Virus record (IMG/VR): IMGVR_UViG_3300048629_000106
Span: 1-29,592 of that record
DNA length: 29,592 nucleotides
Direction: 5' to 3' (one strand)
DNA from: a virus
Lineage: Duplodnaviria; Caudoviricetes
Both the position numbers and the translations under genes were made by a program. Below are positions 5,067-25,427 of the stretch, one piece after another (position 1 is the stretch's first letter; each line of letters begins with the position of its first letter). The notes beneath the pieces were generated by a model. That model ran no database searches and was not told the origin of the DNA. It saw only the letters and a program-made list of their open reading frames with translations.

Positions 5067-8000
5067 ATGGCTATTAAAGATATTTATAGTGGTGATAGTG
5101 CTGAGGATGTTGTAATAGATGGTGTGGGTGGTGAAAAGACAATTGCTCAAATGGGAATTTGGGGGGCTGGTAGAGAGTGGGGGGCTGAGGATATTCTGCA
5201 GGGGGCTAAAGAAAATCCTGAGTTTTGGGTTGAAAATAAATTACAAACTGATATTGATAATATTGCGTCTTTGCCTGTGGTACGGGGGTTTGATACTATT
5301 CGTGAGGATATTAAAAGATTACCAGAATTTAAAAATCCTAGATTGGAAAATATTTTTAAGCGTTTGGAAGATGCTAGTAATAGTGAAGATTTTGAGATTC
5401 AAAAAAAATCAAAACTAATGATGCAACGACTTAATAATATAGAGGATAAGTACCGCAAGAAACTTGAAAAAACAGCGTCGAAAGTTGGGATTACTGTTGG
5501 TGAGTTAAGTGGGCTTGCTAAGAAGTCTCACAAGGGATGGGGTGAAATTGATATTACTGATGAGAGGGATAAAATATATAAGAAGATGTTTGCTGAGCTT
5601 GATCAGTGGCAGGATAAAGATTTGTTGGAATTATCAAAAGACCAGAACGATAGATTGTTGTTAGAGACTGGTAATATGGTTAGGGATAAAGATGCTACCC
5701 CTGAAGATTTTACTAGGCTAATCAAAGAATGGAAAAATACTAGGGATAGAATGTTGGCTGATTTACCAAAAAATATTGCTATCCCAAAAGATGCCGACGA
5801 AAAACAAACAAAGGTTTTAAAAGAAAAACAAAAAGAGTTAAGGGATAAGAGAAATAATATTATAGAATATACTCAACAGATGAGTAATTTTATGTATGAG
5901 ATGAGAAAAAGAAAAAAGGATCAACCTAAATCTGTTGGGCAGGGTGCAGAAGCTTGGAGAGCTTTAAAGAGAATTTATTATTCTAAATTTCCTCGGGCTG
6001 TTGGTGGTATTGCTGGTGGATTGTCTGGTGGTAACCTTGGCGAGGATTACCGTGTTGGTGGTGGAGCTATGGCTTTGGAGCCTGATTTGATTGAATCAGG
6101 CAAAGCAAGCCAGTTTATGAGTAGTAATTGGTGGACTAAGAATGTTGTTGAAGGTACTGAGTCTATTGCTGAGGGTGTGGTTGGGGCATATTTGGCAACT
6201 TTGATGTTTGGTCCTGGAGGATTGTTGGTGGCTGAGGGTGTAGAGGGTGCTGGTGCAGCTACTGGTATCGCTGGATTGAGTGGTGAAACTGTGGGATTTT
6301 TGGGTTTTGCATTACCGATGGGCTTGGAAGTTGCAGGTAATAAATTTTCTGATACTTACGAAAAATTATTAAAAGAAGGAAAGAGTCAAAAATCTGCTTG
6401 GGCAACTGCGTCTGTTGAAGGTTTGTTGTCTGCTGCTGTAGAGGTAGCGACCGAAAGAATTAGTTGGGGAAATTACGGGAACAAATTAAATAAAGCCTTG
6501 CATGGCGGTTGGGAAAAGAGTTTAGAACGGGGTATTAAACTTTCGTTAAAGGATAAGGTTAGGGCTTATGTTGCAAGTGGTGCGTCGGCGACTTTTGCAG
6601 AATTTATGGAAGAAAATATTAGTAGTGTGGGAAATGATCTTATTGATGCCTTGCATGGTGATAGTCGTATTGTTAAAATGGTTAAGTCTGGAAAGATTAC
6701 TTGGGGCGATGTAGAACGTGCTGGAAAAGAAATAGCTGGTAATTTTGCTGGTGTGTTGAGTAGTTTTGGTTTAGGTGCTGGCGGTGCTGCTCTTGGTATT
6801 CATAATGCAGAAGATGTAATCACTCAATACGATAGTATCAAGTCAGAGATTGGTGAAGCATTACAGGATTCTGTCGATGATGTTGTTGGTACTGTATTGA
6901 CTGATGGCGAGCGTACTGTTACTGTAGTTGATGTTACTGATGACGCTCTTATGGTGGAGGATAACGATACTGGAGATATGGGGCAGATCGTAGATGCTGG
7001 TGATGGTAGCTTGGTTATGGATGGTAGTGATACTCCTTGGCAGGTTGTTACCGATATCAAGCCTGTGGTTGATGGAGAAGTAGAACCAACTCCTGTGCAA
7101 ACACAGTCGGAAGATAATATTCCTCCTGCTACTGTTGAAACAGAACCAACTCCTACTGCTGATATTAAGCCTGTGGTTGATGGGGAAACAGAACCAACTC
7201 CTACTGCTGATGTCAAGCCTGTGGTTGATGGAGAAACAGAACCAACTCCTGTGCAAACACAGTCGGAAGATAATATTCCTCCTGCTACTGTTGAAACTGA
7301 ACCAACTCCTACTACTGATGTCAAACCCGTGGTTGATGGGGAAACAGAACCAACTCCTGTGTCCGATGTTAAGCTACAAAAAAATGAATTTAATCTTGAT
7401 ACTCCTGATGACAAGTATAATGTAGGTGGACACTGGCAGGTGTTTGATGTAAATGATGTATTGGTTAGTTCTGACAAGGGTTATCCGCAAGAATTACAAC
7501 CTAGAAATAGAGCTAGTATACAGTCCAAAGCACAAATATTATCAATCGCAAAAAATGTAAAGTGGCAAAAACTTTTTGAATCTGCTGGTATTACTAGTAG
7601 TGGTGCACCATTGGTGTTAAGGATAAAAGATGGTGAGTTTGGCAATACTAGTGGCGAAGATAAATATGTGGTGGTGGTGGGTAATGGTCGCTGGTCTGGT
7701 ATTCGTATGGGGTATCAGAGTGGTAATGGTGCAGAAAATTACAAAAAAGAGGTGTTAAAACATAGTGCGTCGGCAGGTTTAGAAGTGAATACCGAAAAAC
7801 CAGTATTGGCTAGGGTTATTGATATGGATAAGCTATTAAAACGTGATGCTGATGGTAATCATATTCCTGCTGGTATAGAGGATATGGCTGATTTTGCCGT
7901 ATCGTCAAACAAAGATGAAAAGCTTGATATGAGCAATGTTGAGCAAGCTATTGTAGATGCAAAAATAATTATTGACAATGAAATGTTATCGGGTTTTGAA

Positions 8001-11000
8001 ACGGATGCAAATGGCAATGTGTTGGCTCGTAGCAATGACCCGTTTTTGCGTAGATTTGTTGAATTGGTTGGTGCAAGTGGTGTTTTGGTTTCTCGTCCTA
8101 ATGGTGGGGGTCATGTATGGAGCAAAGAGTTGGGTGGTAGGGTAGAACGCGCTATGTTGGCGGCTTTGTTTGTTGGTACTGATAATGTGCAACAATTGTT
8201 AGATCAGCTTATAGAAGCATCGGAGTTTTATGGTATTAGTAGGGTGGTATCTGCTATTAATAAGATTAGTGGTGAATTATTAAAATTAGCAGAGGAAAGA
8301 CCTGCATATAATATTATACCTGATACGGCTTTAGCATTAAGAGAATTTGTATTATATAAAAAAGATGTTATTGATGGTGTATTTAGTAATATCTATGATT
8401 TTATGGCCCAGGGTGAATTATTTAAGGAAGATGGAATAAGAAGAACGAGAGTGTCTGAAGCTATATTGTTGAGATTGGGAACTGCCACTGGTATTTATGA
8501 TATTGTTGATTTCTTTGTAAGCTATATTGGTTCTGCAAGGAAGTTGGATTTAACCCCAAAAGATATGTTTGGTGTAGAAAATGACACCAAAGAACAAATT
8601 ATCGAAAGGATAATACAAGATGAAAAACAAAAGCAAAAAGAGTTTAAAAGATTATCCCGCTCTGCAGGCAATGAGCAAACAAAGGGAGTGGAACCGCAAA
8701 CACGGGACAGTGATAAGGAACCCAGACGGAACTCCAAAAACAAGAATGCAAATTCTGAAAAGGGGAATAAAAAATCCGAGTCCGAAGATGACCGCGGTGA
8801 TGATGGCAAGATTATCACAGGAAAGGGAAAACTCAATAAAGGATCGTTGGGATATACGGCAGAAAATAGCAAGGTGGGCAGGAAGGGAACAGTTCTTGTC
8901 GGCGATGATGTACCGGGTATTTCTCTCGACCCCAACGGTTCGGGAGGCATATTGGCAAAAGGTGAGACAACGGTTGGAGTCGAAGGGAGTGGATTCCCAA
9001 GTGGCGAGGGGGTATCTCCTAGTGGTGGAAGGATTAGTGGAGCATCGGATAATAACCAAGTACCTACTGAGCCATCAAACCCTAGAGGTGAGGTTAGTGT
9101 TTCCAGAGATGTTGACAAGGATGGAAGCAGTAAAGGTAGCCAACAAGGAACTTCGGCTGTCGAAAATACAGCAGACGAGCCTCCAACAGCTACTACCAGT
9201 AAAACTGAAGGATCTCTTGCCGGTAATGAAGGAGGATTATCTAACACACAAGTGGGGAATAAAGATAACCGAACCTCAAAAACCAAAGATGTAACACCTA
9301 AAAAAGAACCAGCAAAAATAGAAAAACCAGCAGATTTAGAAGTTAAAGAAAAAGATTTAACTTTTGAAGAAAAGTTACAAGCTCAAAAAGATGCTGAAGA
9401 AATTCCTGTAAAGATTGGTGATCGTGGTAATATATCAGAAACATTACCATTTCTTTACAAAGAGCAGCAGGACGATGTCTATAAGGCAGAACAAAGAATG
9501 CTTATAGAAAAGCCAACTCCTGACGACCCTAAAAAAGGTATTCTTTTTGCTAATGGTACTGGCACTGGTAAGACCTTTACGGGTCTAGGTATAATGAAGC
9601 GTTATATCAAGCGTGGCAAGGGTAGAATAGTTGTATTAGTACCAACCCAAGCAAAAGTAAATGATTGGATAAAAGAAGCTAAGTTGTTGGGAATTACTAT
9701 TAATAAGATTGTTGACGGTAAAGATGCTGGTAAGGGAGTTGTAATTACTACTTATGCAAATATGCGAGCAAATCCAATTTTGCAAAGTGTGTTATTTGAT
9801 TTAGTCGTTGCTGATGAATCTCATTATATTAATAGTAATGCAGCTGGAAAAGAAAATTCTAGCTTGAGGGGTTTTTCTAGGTTGGTGGGGAAACGTTTGT
9901 TTTTTGAATCAAAAATAATAAATGGTTTTTATAATGAGATCAAAAAGAATATAGAGGGTGCTGGTAAAAATGTTGAAGATTATTTTGAGGATGAAGATCC
10001 AAGTTTTTTTAGTACTATTGTTGATGAATTTTTAGGTAAAAAAAGTTTAAAGAAATTTGAAAAAATAATGAAAAAGAGGGTGATGTCTGACGTTGTATTG
10101 TTATCGGCAACCCCATTTGCGTATGTTAAAAACATAGAGTATGGGGATGAGTTGTTGTTTCATATGGGGGATAAAGATAGGTTTATGATTAGTAATTTTG
10201 GGTATCGGATTAGGTATGGGAAATTAACAAAGCCTGAAGTTGATGTTGATACTGGACTGCTGGAGAGGGAATTTAGCAATAATTTACAGGCTGGTGGGGT
10301 GATGTCTGTTAGAATGCTATCGGTAGACAAGGATTATTCAAGGCATTTTGTTGATGTTGACACTTCTTTGGGTCGAAAAATTCAAGATGGGTTAGATTTA
10401 ATTAAGTTTGATGAATATCCTGTGTTGGCAATGAATTTACATAGGCTTCATACTTATCATTATAAGATTATTTTATTGGAGGCTCTTAAGACTGAGGGTG
10501 GTATTGATAGGGTTGAAAAACATTTGGCTTTAGGTAGAAAAGTGGTAGTTTTTCATTCTCGTAAAAAGGGTAGACCTTTTCATCCATTTATTTTTGAGCC
10601 GTTGATTCCTTTGCTAAGGGGGCTTGCTAATAGTGGGATAAATGATGATGATTTAAAAAAATTGGCTGGCGAGATTAAAAAATTTAACTCTGAGCATCCT
10701 GAATATCGTAAGCTTGATTTATCCTCTTTACAAAATAGCATTGATAAGTTTCCTAAGCGGTTTGGTCAAAGGGTGGTGATGTTTAATGGTGATGTTCCCG
10801 CAAAGCAACGTAGTAAAAATATAAAACTGTTTAATGATGATAACTCTGGGGTTGATATTATTATAGTACAGGTTGATGCTGGCAAAGAAGGTATAAGCTT
10901 GCATGATATTACTGGTAATGGCAGACAACGGGTATTAATGGCTTTAAACTTGCCTAATAAACCCGTTGATATTTCACAAATGGAGGGGCGAATATATCGC

Positions 11001-14000
11001 CTTGGGGTTAAATCAAACGCCATTATTGAATATCTTAAAACGGGGCTTAGTATGGAAAAGTGGGCATTTGGCACATCTATCAATAGTAAATCTTCTACTG
11101 CTGAGAATTTAGCGTTGGGGGCTGCTGGTCGTGATTTAAAGGCTATAATAAAGGAACAATATATTAATTCTGAATCTGATAGTCCATCTGTTGAGCAGGG
11201 TATTGGTGGTAAAGTTAGAGATAGGAGTGTGGGAATAACTAGCAAGTTTCAAAGGGCTATTACTTACTTTTTTCGACGGGAAAAGAAAAACAAGAAAACT
11301 TCTGGTTATGCAGGAGCTGATTTTTTTGCTACTCCTGAGCCTTTGGGGCTTAAAATGGTAGAATGGTTGCGGTTAGAAGATGGGGATAGTGTTCTTGAAC
11401 CCTCTGCTGGTGATGGTGCTATTGCTCGGTGGATACCAGATAATATGCATACTGTTCTTTTGGAACCTTCAGATGAACTTGCTGGTGATTTAATGGTGTT
11501 GGTGGGGGGTACTGTTCAGCCTATTAAGTTTGAACAGCTAAATAGGTTGAATAAATTTGAGGGGATTGTTATGAATCCCCCGTTTGGAAAGCAAAGCAAA
11601 TTAGCTTTTGAACATGTTGCAAAAGCTTTTGAGCATTTGGAAAATGGTGGGCGTATTGTTGCTTTGGTTCCAGATGGTTCTTCTTTTGATAAACGGTTTA
11701 ATAATTGGATGGCAAACAATGATAATGCCTATCTAAGGGCAAGTCGTGGGTTACCTGCTGGTATATTTAGTAGGGTTGGGACATCAGTTAAAACTAAAAT
11801 TCTTATTATTGATCGTGTTGATGATGATGTACATGTTCCTTTTGCTGTTGGTGGTGAATTGGTAGAGTTCTCTGGTAAGCCAAATATGCAAGAGTTTTTT
11901 AATGCAATAGAGGATATGGAGAGCATTCCTAGAATAGAAGTATTTTCAACAAAAAAAATATTTAAAAAATTTAGCGTAAGGTTTTCTGTCAAAAAACAAA
12001 ATGGTAATATAGTTGTAACGCTAACTGGTAGAGAATTTGTTAAGGCTGTTGGTAGGAGTTTTGTAGATTATGTAGATAATCATTATGCAGGTATAGACGC
12101 AGCCGCGATAAAATCTCCAGATGCAAAAGGTCGTGGAAATGATCAGATACAAATTATTTATACAGTAAATAGTAATAAAAAAGTTCCTTGGGGGTTGGGC
12201 ATAGATGAAGTTTCCCCTTCTCAATTAAAAGAAAAATGGGCAGAGTTTTTGGAGGAATATTCAGGGTTGTATCGCGGTAGAAAATTAAGAGAGTTAGCAG
12301 GAGAAAAAGAAGATACTACTCCTGAACTACCTCTGTATGGTATGGTTGAACCTAAAGGCGAATTGGGTGATAACTCCTTGCTTAAACCATCTAAAAATAT
12401 TCTTCCTAAAAAATCCACTAAACAAAAACCTAAAAAGCTTGTAGGTAAATCTGATATTATTAAATTTATAAACGATAATTTTATGGTAGTCCGCAAGGGC
12501 AGATCATGGAGCTTTAGAAAGAAAAAAGGTGGTGGAAGTGTAAAAGGTTTTTATAATTCTCATGAAGATGAGATTAGGCTTAAAAATGCCGAATCTATCG
12601 AAGTTGTAATGCACGAGCTTGGTCATGCATTACACGGGATACTTATTGGTAAGCGTCGTGGCGAAGATGGCAAACTTAGATTAGTAGGATTAAATAATCT
12701 ATTAAGTGGGGTAGCTCTTGGTGAACTTGAATCATTGGGTAAATCTACGAGTCCAATTGACAAATTGGGAGATAAAGAGTATTTGCAAAAAGAGGGTTTA
12801 GCTGAATATGTCCGCAGATATATATTTGCTCCAGAAACAATATCAATTTATGCACCAGCCTTTAGTAAGTCTTTTGAAGAATTACTAAAAACCGATCCTG
12901 ATGTAGCAAAGGTTGTAGATACATTAAGAGATATGGTGCAATCATACAAAGACTTGTCTGAATATGAGCGTGTGCAAACAAAAATAAAATCGGCGAATCT
13001 CAAAAAGCCAAAAATAAAAGATTTTAGCCGTAAACTCAAAAAACTTATAGCAAGAATAGATGAAGAAATGTATGATGCTTTATCGCCATTGCGACGGGCG
13101 TTGGATAAGGTGGTAAGTGCAAAACCTAACCTATCTGCCGAAATTGAAAATATCTGGCTTGAAGCTTGGATGTTGCGTGGTGAAGCTGGTAGAATTTCCG
13201 CCTTTTTGTCTCATGAAGTATTTGATACTGGCTTGCGTAAAGTTGATGCAAAACCATTTGCACAAATCTTGTCAGAAGCAGTAGAAAATAAGGTTTTAGA
13301 AGAATTTGAGGTTTATCTAGTTGTTCAACGTGGTTTGGAGCTAGCAAAGCAAGATATAAAAACAGGTTTGGAAGATATTTCTTTAAGTGAAATATCTAAA
13401 CAATTATTACAAAAACATCCAATACTAAAATCTTTGGCGAATGATTTAAAAAATTACCAAAACGCCTTGCTTAGGTATTATGCTGAATCTGGTATGATGA
13501 AAAAGGCAGATGCTGAAAAGTTAATCAGTAAAAATATGTCGTACGTACCTTTTTATCGCTGGTTTGATAGCGATTTAAAAGAAGATAATATAAATGAATC
13601 ATTTCTTAAGGTAAGTGGTAGTTATATCAATCTATCACCTGCTATAAAAAGGCAATTTGGTAGCGAAAGAAGTATTATATCACCATTGTCTGGTATTGTT
13701 ATGAATACTGTTAAGATGTTATCCAAGGCAGATGAGAATAGGGTTGGAAAGCTTTTTACAGATTTGGCAAATGATGAAGAAACTGGTTGGCTAGTAAAAA
13801 AACTAGATAAACAGTTTAACATGAAGCCTATTACTGTTACTGTTGGAGAATTACTCGCAGATTTAGAAGGTCAAGGGATTGGGGTAGTAGACTTAAATGA
13901 ATTGGCAAAGGTGAATAAAAAGGGTTCAAAAGCCACTTTGGAATACGATTCCTCACAATTTGCTAATGATGAAGTAACAATTTATAGACCTATAGATATA

Positions 14001-15995
14001 AAACCATTGCCAGACGAAGCCATTGCCACTGTGTGGAGAGATGGTGTTCCTGTGGTATACCAAGTAGATCCGGGGGTGGCAAGTGCAATGAGAGGTATTA
14101 CTGTTGGTAAAGCCAATTGGGTTATAGAACTAATGGCAATACCAACCAAGATGTTGCGTATAGGTGCAACAACAATGCCTAGTTTTGTTGTTAATAACTT
14201 TGCAAAGGATCAAACAGTAGGTTTTATCAATAGTCAATATGGTTACAATCCCTTAGTGGACTTTGTCAAAGGTGTTTATTCTTTTGTTAAAAAAGACAAG
14301 CACTATATAGATTTTCTTAAAGCTGGTGGTGCAAACGCAATGTTTGTTTCTCAGGATATAGATCGTTCAAAACGTGATATAGAAGAACTTGTAGCCTTTG
14401 GTGCTAAGGGCTATCATGGTATGATGAAGCGTGGCAAGTGGATTGCCTCTCACCCTATAACTGCCGCCCGTAAAATTGGCGAAGCTGGCGAAGTAGGAAC
14501 TAGGCTTGGAAACTTTCGTAAAACTTTTCAAGTATTGCAAAAGAGATTAGCCGAAAAAGGAAAAACTGGCAATCCTATATTAGACTGGGTATACAATTTT
14601 ATTGGCATCTTTCCCGGAATAATGAATAATAGCGACGATTGGCAACACTCTCCGTCTGCTATACAGCACAAATTAAAACAATATGATTTAATGGATCAAT
14701 ATATTGATTTATCTGCTATGATTGATAATACCCCAAATATGACTGCTGACGGTGCAGAGGAAATAAAACGAGTTACCGCTGTACATCTTATAGATATGGC
14801 TATGAGAGTAGAGTGGAGAAGCCTTTTATTACAATCTGGTTTAGCCGCTCGTGATGACACTTCCGATTTTGGCAGGTGGGGTAAAACAACTCGTGTAGGT
14901 AGTAAGATGTTTGCTTTTATGAATCCGGGATTCCAAGAACAGTCCAAAATGTGGCGAATGCTCAAAAATCCAAAAACTAGGTGGGGATATATTGCACGTG
15001 CAATAGTATCAATCACTATACCAACTCTGCTTGAAACATTAATGTATCGTGATGACCCCGAATATCAGGATCTTGATAAGCTCTCTAAAGATATTTTTTA
15101 TCATATCAAGGTTGGAGATAGATTTATCCCTATATTTCCAAAGGCCTGGGGAATGAATACTATTTTTGGTAATATTCCCCGTGATATTATGAATGGTATA
15201 CTAGATGCAATGGATCCAGATACTGAACAACATGTAATAGCAGATTTAGTATCAAGTATAAAGCATGGTTTTGGCATGACGCTGGTCCCAACATTGGCAT
15301 ATCCAATAGTAGAAAATTACGCAAACAGAAGTATTTTTACTGGTGGCACTATCGTTCCACCATCTACTGAGGGCATGGAAGCCAAAGACCAATACAAAGA
15401 TACTACTAGTTTAACGGCTAAAGTAATTGGTAATATGGTTCCGGGTGAAGGTGCATCACCCGCAAAATTAGAAAATTATGTATCATCTTGGACTGCTGGT
15501 CTTGGCAATTATATATTAATGGGTAGTGATAAAGTCCTATCCCAATTTGTGAAGGATCCTTCTGGTTCGGATTATCTACCATTTAAATATGATGTGCCTA
15601 TAATAAGGCGGTTTTTACCAAATTATTCAAGATCTAGGTCGGTTACAAAAATGTATGATATTTATAGCGAAGCAAAAAAGCAATTAGCATCATACAAAAA
15701 AGCAAAAAAAACAAACAATCTGCCTAGAATGAAAGAGCTTACCGCTGAAGAAAATTGGAAATTAAATATTCATTACGATTCACGCCGTAAAAAATATATT
15801 TTTAATTATGCTAACGAAATGAAACAAATTGCATCATTACGCCTAGATATTAGATCGCTAAGAAATAATAAAGAATTAACCAATCCCCAAAAGGTTAAAA
15901 TAGCAGAAGAAAAACTAAAAAATATCCGTACTATCTCTCGCAAGGTAGTAAAAGATTATAATCAAAAAAGAATAACCGTATTACATAAGATATAA
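5067..15995 (+). CDS. Large polyvalent DarB-like protein (3642 aa): ParB-like domain, SF2 helicase, amino(N6-adenine-type) DNA methyltransferase, zincin peptidase, probable LPD38-like C-terminus
   Basis: ddrB-like ParB motifs QPRNR (~7497), SSGAP and GNGR (~7680). Helicase motifs GTGTGKT (~9555), DESH (9813), SATP (10104), AGKEGISLHD and QMEGRIYR (10977). MTase motifs FFATP (11322), VLEPSAGDG (11391) and NPPF (11574). HELGH (12612) with a downstream EGLAEY (12792). The C-terminal ~900 aa resembles LPD38-type regions (recognised by eye). Confidence 0.85.
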   Translation: MAIKDIYSGDSAEDVVIDGVGGEKTIAQMGIWGAGREWGAEDILQGAKENPEFWVENKLQTDIDNIASLPVVRGFDTIREDIKRLPEFKNPRLENIFKRLEDASNSEDFEIQKKSKLMMQRLNNIEDKYRKKLEKTASKVGITVGELSGLAKKSHKGWGEIDITDERDKIYKKMFAELDQWQDKDLLELSKDQNDRLLLETGNMVRDKDATPEDFTRLIKEWKNTRDRMLADLPKNIAIPKDADEKQTKVLKEKQKELRDKRNNIIEYTQQMSNFMYEMRKRKKDQPKSVGQGAEAWRALKRIYYSKFPRAVGGIAGGLSGGNLGEDYRVGGGAMALEPDLIESGKASQFMSSNWWTKNVVEGTESIAEGVVGAYLATLMFGPGGLLVAEGVEGAGAATGIAGLSGETVGFLGFALPMGLEVAGNKFSDTYEKLLKEGKSQKSAWATASVEGLLSAAVEVATERISWGNYGNKLNKALHGGWEKSLERGIKLSLKDKVRAYVASGASATFAEFMEENISSVGNDLIDALHGDSRIVKMVKSGKITWGDVERAGKEIAGNFAGVLSSFGLGAGGAALGIHNAEDVITQYDSIKSEIGEALQDSVDDVVGTVLTDGERTVTVVDVTDDALMVEDNDTGDMGQIVDAGDGSLVMDGSDTPWQVVTDIKPVVDGEVEPTPVQTQSEDNIPPATVETEPTPTADIKPVVDGETEPTPTADVKPVVDGETEPTPVQTQSEDNIPPATVETEPTPTTDVKPVVDGETEPTPVSDVKLQKNEFNLDTPDDKYNVGGHWQVFDVNDVLVSSDKGYPQELQPRNRASIQSKAQILSIAKNVKWQKLFESAGITSSGAPLVLRIKDGEFGNTSGEDKYVVVVGNGRWSGIRMGYQSGNGAENYKKEVLKHSASAGLEVNTEKPVLARVIDMDKLLKRDADGNHIPAGIEDMADFAVSSNKDEKLDMSNVEQAIVDAKIIIDNEMLSGFETDANGNVLARSNDPFLRRFVELVGASGVLVSRPNGGGHVWSKELGGRVERAMLAALFVGTDNVQQLLDQLIEASEFYGISRVVSAINKISGELLKLAEERPAYNIIPDTALALREFVLYKKDVIDGVFSNIYDFMAQGELFKEDGIRRTRVSEAILLRLGTATGIYDIVDFFVSYIGSARKLDLTPKDMFGVENDTKEQIIERIIQDEKQKQKEFKRLSRSAGNEQTKGVEPQTRDSDKEPRRNSKNKNANSEKGNKKSESEDDRGDDGKIITGKGKLNKGSLGYTAENSKVGRKGTVLVGDDVPGISLDPNGSGGILAKGETTVGVEGSGFPSGEGVSPSGGRISGASDNNQVPTEPSNPRGEVSVSRDVDKDGSSKGSQQGTSAVENTADEPPTATTSKTEGSLAGNEGGLSNTQVGNKDNRTSKTKDVTPKKEPAKIEKPADLEVKEKDLTFEEKLQAQKDAEEIPVKIGDRGNISETLPFLYKEQQDDVYKAEQRMLIEKPTPDDPKKGILFANGTGTGKTFTGLGIMKRYIKRGKGRIVVLVPTQAKVNDWIKEAKLLGITINKIVDGKDAGKGVVITTYANMRANPILQSVLFDLVVADESHYINSNAAGKENSSLRGFSRLVGKRLFFESKIINGFYNEIKKNIEGAGKNVEDYFEDEDPSFFSTIVDEFLGKKSLKKFEKIMKKRVMSDVVLLSATPFAYVKNIEYGDELLFHMGDKDRFMISNFGYRIRYGKLTKPEVDVDTGLLEREFSNNLQAGGVMSVRMLSVDKDYSRHFVDVDTSLGRKIQDGLDLIKFDEYPVLAMNLHRLHTYHYKIILLEALKTEGGIDRVEKHLALGRKVVVFHSRKKGRPFHPFIFEPLIPLLRGLANSGINDDDLKKLAGEIKKFNSEHPEYRKLDLSSLQNSIDKFPKRFGQRVVMFNGDVPAKQRSKNIKLFNDDNSGVDIIIVQVDAGKEGISLHDITGNGRQRVLMALNLPNKPVDISQMEGRIYRLGVKSNAIIEYLKTGLSMEKWAFGTSINSKSSTAENLALGAAGRDLKAIIKEQYINSESDSPSVEQGIGGKVRDRSVGITSKFQRAITYFFRREKKNKKTSGYAGADFFATPEPLGLKMVEWLRLEDGDSVLEPSAGDGAIARWIPDNMHTVLLEPSDELAGDLMVLVGGTVQPIKFEQLNRLNKFEGIVMNPPFGKQSKLAFEHVAKAFEHLENGGRIVALVPDGSSFDKRFNNWMANNDNAYLRASRGLPAGIFSRVGTSVKTKILIIDRVDDDVHVPFAVGGELVEFSGKPNMQEFFNAIEDMESIPRIEVFSTKKIFKKFSVRFSVKKQNGNIVVTLTGREFVKAVGRSFVDYVDNHYAGIDAAAIKSPDAKGRGNDQIQIIYTVNSNKKVPWGLGIDEVSPSQLKEKWAEFLEEYSGLYRGRKLRELAGEKEDTTPELPLYGMVEPKGELGDNSLLKPSKNILPKKSTKQKPKKLVGKSDIIKFINDNFMVVRKGRSWSFRKKKGGGSVKGFYNSHEDEIRLKNAESIEVVMHELGHALHGILIGKRRGEDGKLRLVGLNNLLSGVALGELESLGKSTSPIDKLGDKEYLQKEGLAEYVRRYIFAPETISIYAPAFSKSFEELLKTDPDVAKVVDTLRDMVQSYKDLSEYERVQTKIKSANLKKPKIKDFSRKLKKLIARIDEEMYDALSPLRRALDKVVSAKPNLSAEIENIWLEAWMLRGEAGRISAFLSHEVFDTGLRKVDAKPFAQILSEAVENKVLEEFEVYLVVQRGLELAKQDIKTGLEDISLSEISKQLLQKHPILKSLANDLKNYQNALLRYYAESGMMKKADAEKLISKNMSYVPFYRWFDSDLKEDNINESFLKVSGSYINLSPAIKRQFGSERSIISPLSGIVMNTVKMLSKADENRVGKLFTDLANDEETGWLVKKLDKQFNMKPITVTVGELLADLEGQGIGVVDLNELAKVNKKGSKATLEYDSSQFANDEVTIYRPIDIKPLPDEAIATVWRDGVPVVYQVDPGVASAMRGITVGKANWVIELMAIPTKMLRIGATTMPSFVVNNFAKDQTVGFINSQYGYNPLVDFVKGVYSFVKKDKHYIDFLKAGGANAMFVSQDIDRSKRDIEELVAFGAKGYHGMMKRGKWIASHPITAARKIGEAGEVGTRLGNFRKTFQVLQKRLAEKGKTGNPILDWVYNFIGIFPGIMNNSDDWQHSPSAIQHKLKQYDLMDQYIDLSAMIDNTPNMTADGAEEIKRVTAVHLIDMAMRVEWRSLLLQSGLAARDDTSDFGRWGKTTRVGSKMFAFMNPGFQEQSKMWRMLKNPKTRWGYIARAIVSITIPTLLETLMYRDDPEYQDLDKLSKDIFYHIKVGDRFIPIFPKAWGMNTIFGNIPRDIMNGILDAMDPDTEQHVIADLVSSIKHGFGMTLVPTLAYPIVENYANRSIFTGGTIVPPSTEGMEAKDQYKDTTSLTAKVIGNMVPGEGASPAKLENYVSSWTAGLGNYILMGSDKVLSQFVKDPSGSDYLPFKYDVPIIRRFLPNYSRSRSVTKMYDIYSEAKKQLASYKKAKKTNNLPRMKELTAEENWKLNIHYDSRRKKYIFNYANEMKQIASLRLDIRSLRNNKELTNPQKVKIAEEKLKNIRTISRKVVKDYNQKRITVLHKI
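7053..7364 (+). repeat. Two tandem 156-bp units encoding a Pro/Thr/acidic linker (D[IV]KPVVDGE.EPTP x4)
   Basis: Units start at 7053 and 7209 and are near-identical; each holds two DxKPVVDGE sub-repeats and one VQTQSEDNIPPATVETEPTP. Confidence 0.95.
8620..9294 (+). CDS. Candidate overprinted gene (+1 frame, 224 aa) nested in the linker of the giant protein
   Basis: AAAGGA at 8605-8610, 9 nt before the ATG; helical, globular-looking translation; the host frame here is low-complexity and loses its T-ending codon bias. Confidence 0.55.
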   Translation: MKNKSKKSLKDYPALQAMSKQREWNRKHGTVIRNPDGTPKTRMQILKRGIKNPSPKMTAVMMARLSQERENSIKDRWDIRQKIARWAGREQFLSAMMYRVFLSTPTVREAYWQKVRQRLESKGVDSQVARGYLLVVEGLVEHRIITKYLLSHQTLEVRLVFPEMLTRMEAVKVANKELRLSKIQQTSLQQLLPVKLKDLLPVMKEDYLTHKWGIKITEPQKPKM

Positions 15996-18893: not shown

Positions 18894-19165
18894 GATTGAC
18901 TCCATTCTTTCATTTCTGATTCTGATGGGTCTATAAATCTAAAGTCAATTAATTTACAAAATTCGTTAAAATTTATCGTGGAGCTGTCTAAGTGATGCTC
19001 ACCGACATGGAATGTATGGTTGGTAAGTGTGCAGAGAGTTAATACCTGTTGGGTTTTACACAGTATAAAGCCTGCGACTGGTATGCTCTTGTGTAATAGT
19101 GTTTTTAGTCTATCATAATCGGTTGATAGGCTGTATGGTAGTTTTTGGTAGGTTACATTACTCAT
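18890..19165 (-). CDS. Hypothetical phage protein (~91 aa)
   Basis: AAAGGA 9 nt before ATG 19165; ATGA overlaps at both ends. Confidence 0.7.
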   Translation of the reverse strand: MSNVTYQKLPYSLSTDYDRLKTLLHKSIPVAGFILCKTQQVLTLCTLTNHTFHVGEHHLDSSTINFNEFCKLIDFRFIDPSESEMKEWSQS

Positions 19166-25169: not shown

Positions 25170-25427
25170 TTAATCCTCTATTATTTTTGCTAATAGTTCT
25201 TCTTTGTGGACTATTAGAAATTCTTTATCATTGATAAAAATTGGGTTTCCGCTATAAGTACTGATTACTACAACATCTTGTGGGCGTACATCTTGTGTGC
25301 TTCCTTTTATTAGTCGGCAGGTTAGTGCCTTGTTTGTAGGTTTGGGGTTAATAATAATTATCCCCGTGGGGTTCACTGCTGGTATCACTTCTAGTAATAC
25401 TCTATTGTCGGGTAATTTAATAGGCAT
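25170..25427 (-). CDS. GroES/Cpn10-like co-chaperonin
   Basis: IKLPDNRVLL, TGIII mobile-loop motif, DVVVISTYSG and EFLIVHKEELLAKI in an 85-aa protein. Confidence 0.8.
   Translation of the reverse strand: MPIKLPDNRVLLEVIPAVNPTGIIIINPKPTNKALTCRLIKGSTQDVRPQDVVVISTYSGNPIFINDKEFLIVHKEELLAKIIED

Follow-up and report, generated by a model that had tools for sequence, protein, structure and literature searches.

A conserved helical-protein gene nested in the linker of a phage polyvalent-protein gene, with a predicted role as partner of the adjoining helicase-methylase

Is the long +1 reading frame that runs through the linker of a giant phage protein a gene in its own right, and if so, what does its product do? 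The window, by which we mean the whole stretch of DNA analysed, is a 29.6-kb virus record with a completeness of 52% (CheckV). In a comparison with four DNA runs, a single contig covered the whole stretch, and it may be the source of the record. The window contains tail-like genes, a 3,642-codon gene and an integrase, with replication genes on the opposite strand; a GroES-like co-chaperonin gene (25170–25427, minus strand) adjoins the primase. The 3,642-codon gene (5067–15995, plus strand, as are the features below unless stated) is the final gene of the virion module, and the integrase comes next. Its product is a 3,642-residue polyvalent protein that comprises a ddrB-like ParB domain (residues 788–918; 7428–7820; Pfam PF18763, E=2.8e-18), an SF2 helicase-like ATPase with two RecA-like lobes (9501–11006; ResIII at residues 1479–1591, Helicase_C at 1891–1980), an adenine methyltransferase domain 3′ of the helicase (residues about 2075–2260; 11289–11846; PHROG matches annotated DNA methyltransferase) and an LPD38 domain (residues 3330–3499; 15054–15563; Pfam PF18857, E=2.7e-27). 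The nearest solved relatives of the helicase are distant Snf2/Rad54, XPB and RapA proteins. This is a phage-type polyvalent protein in the sense used in the main text of Iyer et al. 2017 (PMC5512222). From its gene position and by analogy with phi24B gp47 and P1 DarB, we infer that it is packaged into the head: in the accessible portions of the respective sources, the LPD38-bearing gp47 is present in phi24B virions (10.64898/2026.04.10.717836), and the first 30 residues of P1 DarB direct that protein to the head (PMC9024508).

Between the ParB-like region and the helicase, the original prediction had placed a probable gene of 224 codons in the +1 frame. Its length and placement are borne out: the frame covers host residues 1185–1409, a linker rich in G, S, D, E, N and K, begins about 270 codons past the ddrB-ParB domain and stops about 85 codons before Walker A. 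The start proposed at 8605 takes in the ribosome-binding site (RBS), and the open reading frame (ORF) itself occupies 8620–9294. The Shine-Dalgarno sequence AAGGA (8606–8610) does lie 9 nt 5′ of the ATG, with the same spacing as in the genes starting at 19165 and 29249. Among the 165 +1-frame ATGs of the giant gene, only the nested start has AAGGA 7–11 nt upstream, and AAGGA also precedes the nested ATG in the closest relative, locus L001. RBS strength is −5.4 kcal/mol at the nested start and weaker, −0.9 kcal/mol, at the giant gene's own start, so that an excess of the small protein would be possible. We found no evidence for an internal promoter (7 sites vs 4.4 expected). A 254-codon antisense ORF (8522–9286, minus strand) covers the same linker; the longest antisense frame over the linker of L001 has 171 codons and one stop, and the antisense ORF is probably a by-product.

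The predicted loss of host codon bias across the ORF is confirmed. Third-position C is found in 41 of 225 host codons inside the ORF vs 253 of 3,417 outside (p=3.5e-7), and third-position T in 66 of 225 vs 1,494 of 3,417 (p=2e-5); the anomaly runs from host codon ~1200 to ~1420, which are the bounds of the nested ORF. A second, milder rise in third-position C (18–20%) occurs at 14217–14900 of the giant gene, where the +1 frame has many stops. The original prediction had also cautioned that hydrophilic linkers naturally have few +1 stops, an explanation that fails on the numbers: with the linker amino acids fixed there are 23 possible +1 stop sites and 7.9 stops expected, and none is present (analytic P=3e-5; P=4.5e-4 with uniform codons). 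None of 20,000 resamplings with the gene's codon usage left the +1 linker stop-free, and none of 2,000 synonymous resamplings of the whole gene reached a +1 frame of 224 codons (maximum 182). The host frame is also held open, with 0 stops vs about 22 expected when the nested codons are left free. Elsewhere in the giant gene, a P/T/E/V-rich tandem repeat (7084–7425) keeps 113 codons of the +1 frame free of stops; the repeat that L001 has there is a different one.

Selection acts on the frame that the nested gene uses. Across 26 non-overlapping pairs of loci, pN was below pS in 25 pairs in the +1 frame and in 3 pairs in the host frame; the alignments followed the +1 protein, which favours the +1 frame where gaps occur, and the closest pairs are gap-free. 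The helicases of 24 such pairs, compared in frame 0, gave 23 with pN below pS and one without differences. Over the nested ORF, the window and L001 share 59% identity in the +1 frame and 36% in the host frame. By implication, the seeming fast evolution of such linkers (pN above pS) is an artefact of the wrong frame, and what looks like a low-complexity linker in a polyvalent protein can be coding sequence under constraint. The word "overprinted" in the original prediction calls for caution, as it would make the small gene the younger frame; within the overlap it is the more constrained one. Relative to the genome, codon usage is nearer in the nested frame at 39 of 63 loci (p=0.005) and farther in the window and L001. 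The linker may itself be a by-product of the nested gene.

Translation signals recur across loci. An RBS precedes 83% of 70 profile-chosen starts vs 25% of 5,759 other +1 ATGs (p=6e-20), and 91% of 123 starts in a second set; the nested ATG often lies a few codons past an in-frame stop. Among loci labelled Bacteroidota, 8 of 9 have no RBS at the nested start, as expected for bacteria that do not use Shine-Dalgarno pairing. A re-start of the helicase at the nested stop was considered and rejected, with an in-frame ATG near the stop in only 7 of 73 loci and at no fixed place. Judged from these sequence signals, the nested gene is likely to be translated from its own RBS.

To define the family, we assembled 86 loci, comprising the window, 78 loci from helicase scans, 5 cultured phages and 2 loci found via the small protein; eleven duplicate fetches and one twice-seen contig were dropped, and some near-identical loci remain. 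A single-sequence search with the 224-residue protein returned 0 matches among 226 candidates; the family was reached only via the DNA around relatives of the helicase. The first five viral loci found by the helicase all had a +1 ORF at the same place, and in all, 75 of the 86 loci have a homologous +1 ORF ahead of the same helicase, including 28 outside the 47 loci that seeded the family HMM. Scored with an HMM built without the window, the window's nested core gives E=1.1e-17, and hhalign assigns it a probability of 98% to alignment A6. Three of the 75 copies are cut or shortened (L033, L049 and L068), and the host frame is broken nearby in L038 and L045; in L068 (4876–4971) the nested gene is down to 32 codons in a truncated host gene, with start and RBS kept. 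The 11 misses are 8 helicases that start their own ORF 65–102 codons before Walker A, 2 loci without upstream DNA and one long giant protein (L025). Record titles name Proteobacteria, Bacteroidota, Negativicutes, Campylobacterota and Verrucomicrobia, and the 8 phage records (6 phages) that carry the helicase are exactly the 8 in which the small protein is matched. One of these phages, Skulduggery, which grows on Pseudomonas fluorescens SBW25, has its nested ORF at host-protein residues 1422–1551. In family-wide samples of genomes, matches numbered 1 of 401, 6 of 301 and 1 of 401, centres included. One member, NZ_CP083940.1:31750-32103 (H25), lies inside an LPD38 protein on a 57.7-kb Comamonas record that is filed as a plasmid and is probably a phage or phage-plasmid.

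A typical member has 120–130 residues, which corresponds in the window to the all-helical core defined by HMM, hhalign and structure models (about residues 79–195; 8854–9204). The window and L001 alone add about 80 basic residues as an N-terminal extension (residues 1–78; 8620–8853). Between these two, identity in the +1 frame vs the host frame is 72% vs 42% over the core, 53% vs 26% over residues 1–45 of the extension and 30% vs 27% over residues 46–78. The window protein has a net charge of +25 and no cysteine; most family members are net negative, and cysteine makes up 0.1% of the family. The window ORF matched no Pfam or PHROG family, and among 60 family members no consistent family emerged, with no Pfam family matched by more than two of them. 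TnpV (PF14198), which we considered as an identity, was not among the 25 families shown for these 60 members.

The expectation that annotation pipelines would miss such a gene proved right, as it is absent from all five annotated phage records examined. Gene callers do report the small protein when the giant gene is cut: of 1,670 candidates, 110 matched, 96 of them on contigs shorter than 5 kb. The proposal of a nested, separately initiated gene is upheld by its conservation, by selection specific to its frame, by the enrichment of RBSs, by the free-standing copies and by a confident fold. We conclude that the nested gene is widespread and unannotated, and nearly certain to be real.

What the product does can be approached through its neighbours. 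Searching from the small protein brought up 146 loci, to which a genome sample added one; 125 of these are distinct. At 113 of the distinct loci, the small gene sits in an open −1 frame that continues as far as the helicase Walker A. Of the others, 3 are truncated at the end of the locus, 2 have an open frame that leads to no helicase and 7 contain −1-frame stops. The domains upstream of the linker vary between loci, and helicase and methylase follow the nested gene wherever the DNA is long and intact. Conversely, the nested gene is absent from all 8 loci in which the helicase-methylase has an ORF start of its own (about 850 residues in 7 of them), and whole-record searches of 4 of the 8 found none, with 5 of 5 positive-control genomes matched. 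The seven standalone helicase-methylases of ~850 residues (L022, L040, L042, L046, L047, L063 and L069) form one tree group, lack the nested gene and have K at helicase position 85, which lies in the interface helix of the complex model described below; the window helicase, too, has K at position 85, as in the 7 standalone helicases scored. Trees were built by FastTree, and in the helicase tree, which has no outgroup, the helicases without a nested gene form one clade. Distances in the nested-gene and helicase trees correlate (Spearman 0.57, 56 pairs), as shared descent alone would give. At two loci, L173 and L176, small genes, one of them with an AntA domain, have been inserted beside the nested ORF and interrupt the giant gene; the nested ORF is left on the N-terminal part in L173 and on the helicase part in L176. 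A helical domain that often flanks the linker was rejected as an obligatory partner, as it lies directly upstream in 58 of 148 hosts and the window does not have it.

Eight free-standing copies, at about seven places, offer a view of the gene outside its host. Their nearest relatives are nested members (in a weakly supported tree), and in four intact copies the stops in the −1 frame are at chance level (observed vs expected: L174, 21 vs 20.6; L148, 7 vs 8.5; L149, 4 vs 4.9; L106, 4 vs 5.6). Linker remnants are still visible in the free copies L110 and L132. By sequence, the free copies look like escapes from the nested state, and the idea of a free-standing ancestor engulfed by read-through fusion gains no support from the copies found, which look derived. 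Their settings differ: the copy at L174:941-1381 sits 3 nt ahead of a gene for the type I restriction subunit HsdR on a contig of 31% GC, that at L132:1749-3347 is fused C-terminally to a coiled-coil and J-domain-like protein, that at L149:549-1109 is fused C-terminally to the helical domain that flanks the linker in many giants, and those at L116:639-1292 and L110:195-677 each have a further C-terminal tail.

The impression in the original prediction of a helical product is reinforced by structure prediction. AlphaFold2 models are all-helical, with a pLDDT of 84.5 for the window protein and an eight-helix domain with a pLDDT of 96 (120-residue core) for the nested protein of L029. A PDB sequence search gave weak matches to designed repeats alone (best E 0.002). 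With a cut-off of E<=0.001, Foldseek searches of PDB and BFVD with the core, and of BFVD with the full window model, gave no match; the ESM Atlas gave no usable match for the nested protein, and the best VIA-align match among 48,161 chains had Z 4.3 and an rmsd of 4.1 over 84 residues. These blanks do not prove a new fold.

We then modelled the helicase-methylase of L029 (858 residues) together with its own nested protein, in three runs and with three controls. The complex scored 0.74 (runs 0.76, 0.00 and 0.74), and the best of the three controls scored 0.00; the score of the model with an unrelated 820-residue protein was 0.00. Of solved pairs, 116 of 157 reach the mark used, and of mismatched pairs 2 of 215, counts that are rough here, where the alignments were our own. 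Agreement between runs is at least 0% of contacts, and the partner pLDDT at least 77. In the model, the small protein bridges both helicase lobes and meets Walker A (52–56), DEAH (139–142) and what we take to be the motif Ia helix (81–92) and motifs III (254–259), V (535–538) and VI (571–573). In the window's helicase, the Walker A loop, identified by sequence, lies at 9552–9575; its counterpart in L029 is the predicted docking site. On the other side of the interface are the near-invariant P88-E89, E95 and D/E103 of the small protein, which are kept in the window; the window protein lacks the N-terminal motif that contacts Walker B in the L029 model. Over 145 paired sequences, the 20 strongest covarying pairs include 2 of the model's 25 best contacts. 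The enrichment fades with depth (3 in the top 20 vs 0.44 expected, 4 in 100 vs 2.2; mean z 0.54 at 25 contacts), and the covariation set and the model's input have sequences in common. Conservation is no higher in the interface columns than elsewhere (entropy 1.66 vs 1.58). Recall of a known complex is unlikely, since the helicase's solved relatives are distant and the partner has none. On this model, the nested protein probably binds its own helicase. The original suggestion of a partner or regulator of the helicase-methyltransferase thereby gains support from the strict linkage to the module and from the L029 model.

The reading that we favour, at a probability of roughly 0.5, is that the nested protein may act as an inhibitor of the virion-delivered helicase-methylase. 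The small gene would be translated from its own RBS within the giant gene's linker, and its helical product would sit in the cleft between the giant protein's two helicase lobes, in the pose predicted for L029, where it could stop the lobes from closing on ATP. The translocase-methylase for injected DNA would be held quiet in the virion-building cell, and the inhibition would presumably lift once the protein is packaged or injected. Being nested, the inhibitor would stay with the enzyme module while the module shuffles among giant proteins. Against inhibition stand the basic window protein in a mostly acidic family, the long giant protein of L025 that has no nested gene, and the standalone helicase-methylases that manage without one. 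The cleft pose in the model does not by itself separate an inhibitor from a chaperone or activator. In its full form, our proposal is of a linker-encoded off-switch: a new helical family that would plug the ATP cleft of a Snf2-like translocase, a two-frame enzyme-inhibitor cassette from which the small gene has broken free repeatedly, in one case to a place next to a type I restriction motor, and a "disordered linker" that would be largely the gene's shadow. We hold this fuller picture tentatively, at slightly worse than even odds.

The same linkage and the same complex model would also suit a folding or packaging chaperone that binds these lobes and keeps the module soluble and open for head loading and later threading. 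This is unlikely. In its favour, the small protein occurs with the giant virion-type form and is absent with the standalone helicase-methylases, and TraH, nested in traI, stabilises its partner complex according to the portion of PMC7314908 available to us. The modelled contact, however, centres on the catalytic P-loop via invariant acidic residues, free copies persist away from virion genes, and P1 DarB, as cited above from PMC9024508, goes to the head through its own N-terminus.

We regard it as improbable that the small protein is delivered together with the giant protein as an activator or subunit through which ATP hydrolysis is coupled to the methylation of incoming DNA. It does bridge both lobes in the model and is inherited together with the helicase, but standalone homologues keep all catalytic motifs without it, and coverage of the P-loop suggests occlusion. 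Similarly doubtful is a target in the host, such as a restriction-enzyme translocase, for which an anti-restriction or regulatory protein would merely be travelling in the linker. DNA-mimic anti-restriction proteins are acidic, as are most members of this family; the L174 copy adjoins HsdR, and free copies are retained after the giant frame decays. Yet the window copy is strongly basic, an HsdR neighbour is seen in only 1 of 8 free copies, the place beside its own helicase is nearly invariant, and the model with the unrelated 820-residue protein scored 0.00.

Ribosomal frameshifting, by which the +1 frame would become the C-terminal domain of a shortened giant protein, could use a TTTAAAA run at 8643, and the database protein P0125 joins the domain to the start of the helicase, probably via an indel; it is very improbable in view of the conserved ATG and RBS, often a few codons after an in-frame stop, and of free-standing copies with their own starts. 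That the open frame is a by-product of linker composition or of selection on the host protein, as the scarcity of +1 stops in hydrophilic linkers, the open repeat at 7084–7425 and the nearness of the host frame to the gene's codon usage in the window and L001 might suggest, is contradicted by frame-specific selection and free-standing copies, and also by resampling, RBS enrichment, the confident fold and the −1-frame linkage to the helicase, which leaves it a next to negligible chance.

Phages that carry huge DNA-acting enzymes have to produce, keep and deliver them with no premature action. A cognate binder hidden in the same gene would be a specific answer to how this is done, present in cultured phages whose records miss the nested gene. 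If an inhibitor it is, a small protein that blocks a Snf2-like ATPase cleft would also be a useful reagent for motor studies.

Among known systems, the closest to the host protein are the DarB dyad and polyvalent proteins described in the main text of PMC5512222, which likewise combine ddrB-ParB, LPD38, SF2 ATPase and adenine methylase; in the window's giant protein the helicase (residues 1479–1980) precedes the methylase (~2075–2260), the reverse of the usual DarB dyad. That main text contains neither "overlap" nor "linker" and one unrelated "reading frame". Our literature search, largely of openly accessible papers, found no report of the nested family or its predicted role, and the portions covered of PMC10386132 and of the Parlo announcement PMC6606913 do not mention it. 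When alternative-frame ORFs of at least 90 codons in P1 darB, BcepIL02 gp70 and PEp14 gp27 were compared with the family HMM, none matched (E>2). BcepIL02 gp70 and PEp14 gp27 do have unannotated +1 ORFs of their own in a linker upstream of the methylase, with 107 codons and an RBS of −12.4 kcal/mol in the former (L254:21296-21616) and 105 codons and −6.9 kcal/mol in the latter (L255:11779-12093), so that nesting in such linkers seems recurrent. The PEp14 ORF has a weak TnpV match (E=4e-4, 20.7 bits, below the cut-off of 27), and hhalign gives it a probability of 0.3% against the nested family. The P1 record (L253:26577-26975) annotates iddB antisense within ddrB, a gene inside a polyvalent-type gene.

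Two nested partner genes provide the nearest parallels. Rz1, embedded in Rz and annotated in BcepIL02 and PEp14, is like the nested gene a fully embedded, shifted-frame phage gene, and its product works together with Rz, the product of its host gene. Rz1 is a lipoprotein, whereas the nested family is soluble, helical and almost free of cysteine; a spanin of the Rz1 type was rejected as an identity, given the lack of a lipoprotein cysteine in the window ORF and the 0.1% cysteine of the family. The second parallel is traH in traI of the IncP plasmid RP4, an accessory gene in another frame inside the gene of its partner enzyme (PMC7314908, in the portion available). No family match links TraH to the nested family. 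As described there, TraH is small and acidic; most nested-family members are net negative, and the window protein is at +25. TraH acts on its partner's complex, an action for which the nested family has model support on L029; its partner is a conjugation relaxase, whereas that of the nested family would be a virion-delivered SF2 ATPase-methylase, and TraH stabilises where the nested protein is predicted to cover the ATP site. Nested partner genes are thus already known from traH/traI and Rz1/Rz, and the nested family, in its predicted role, would be a further case.
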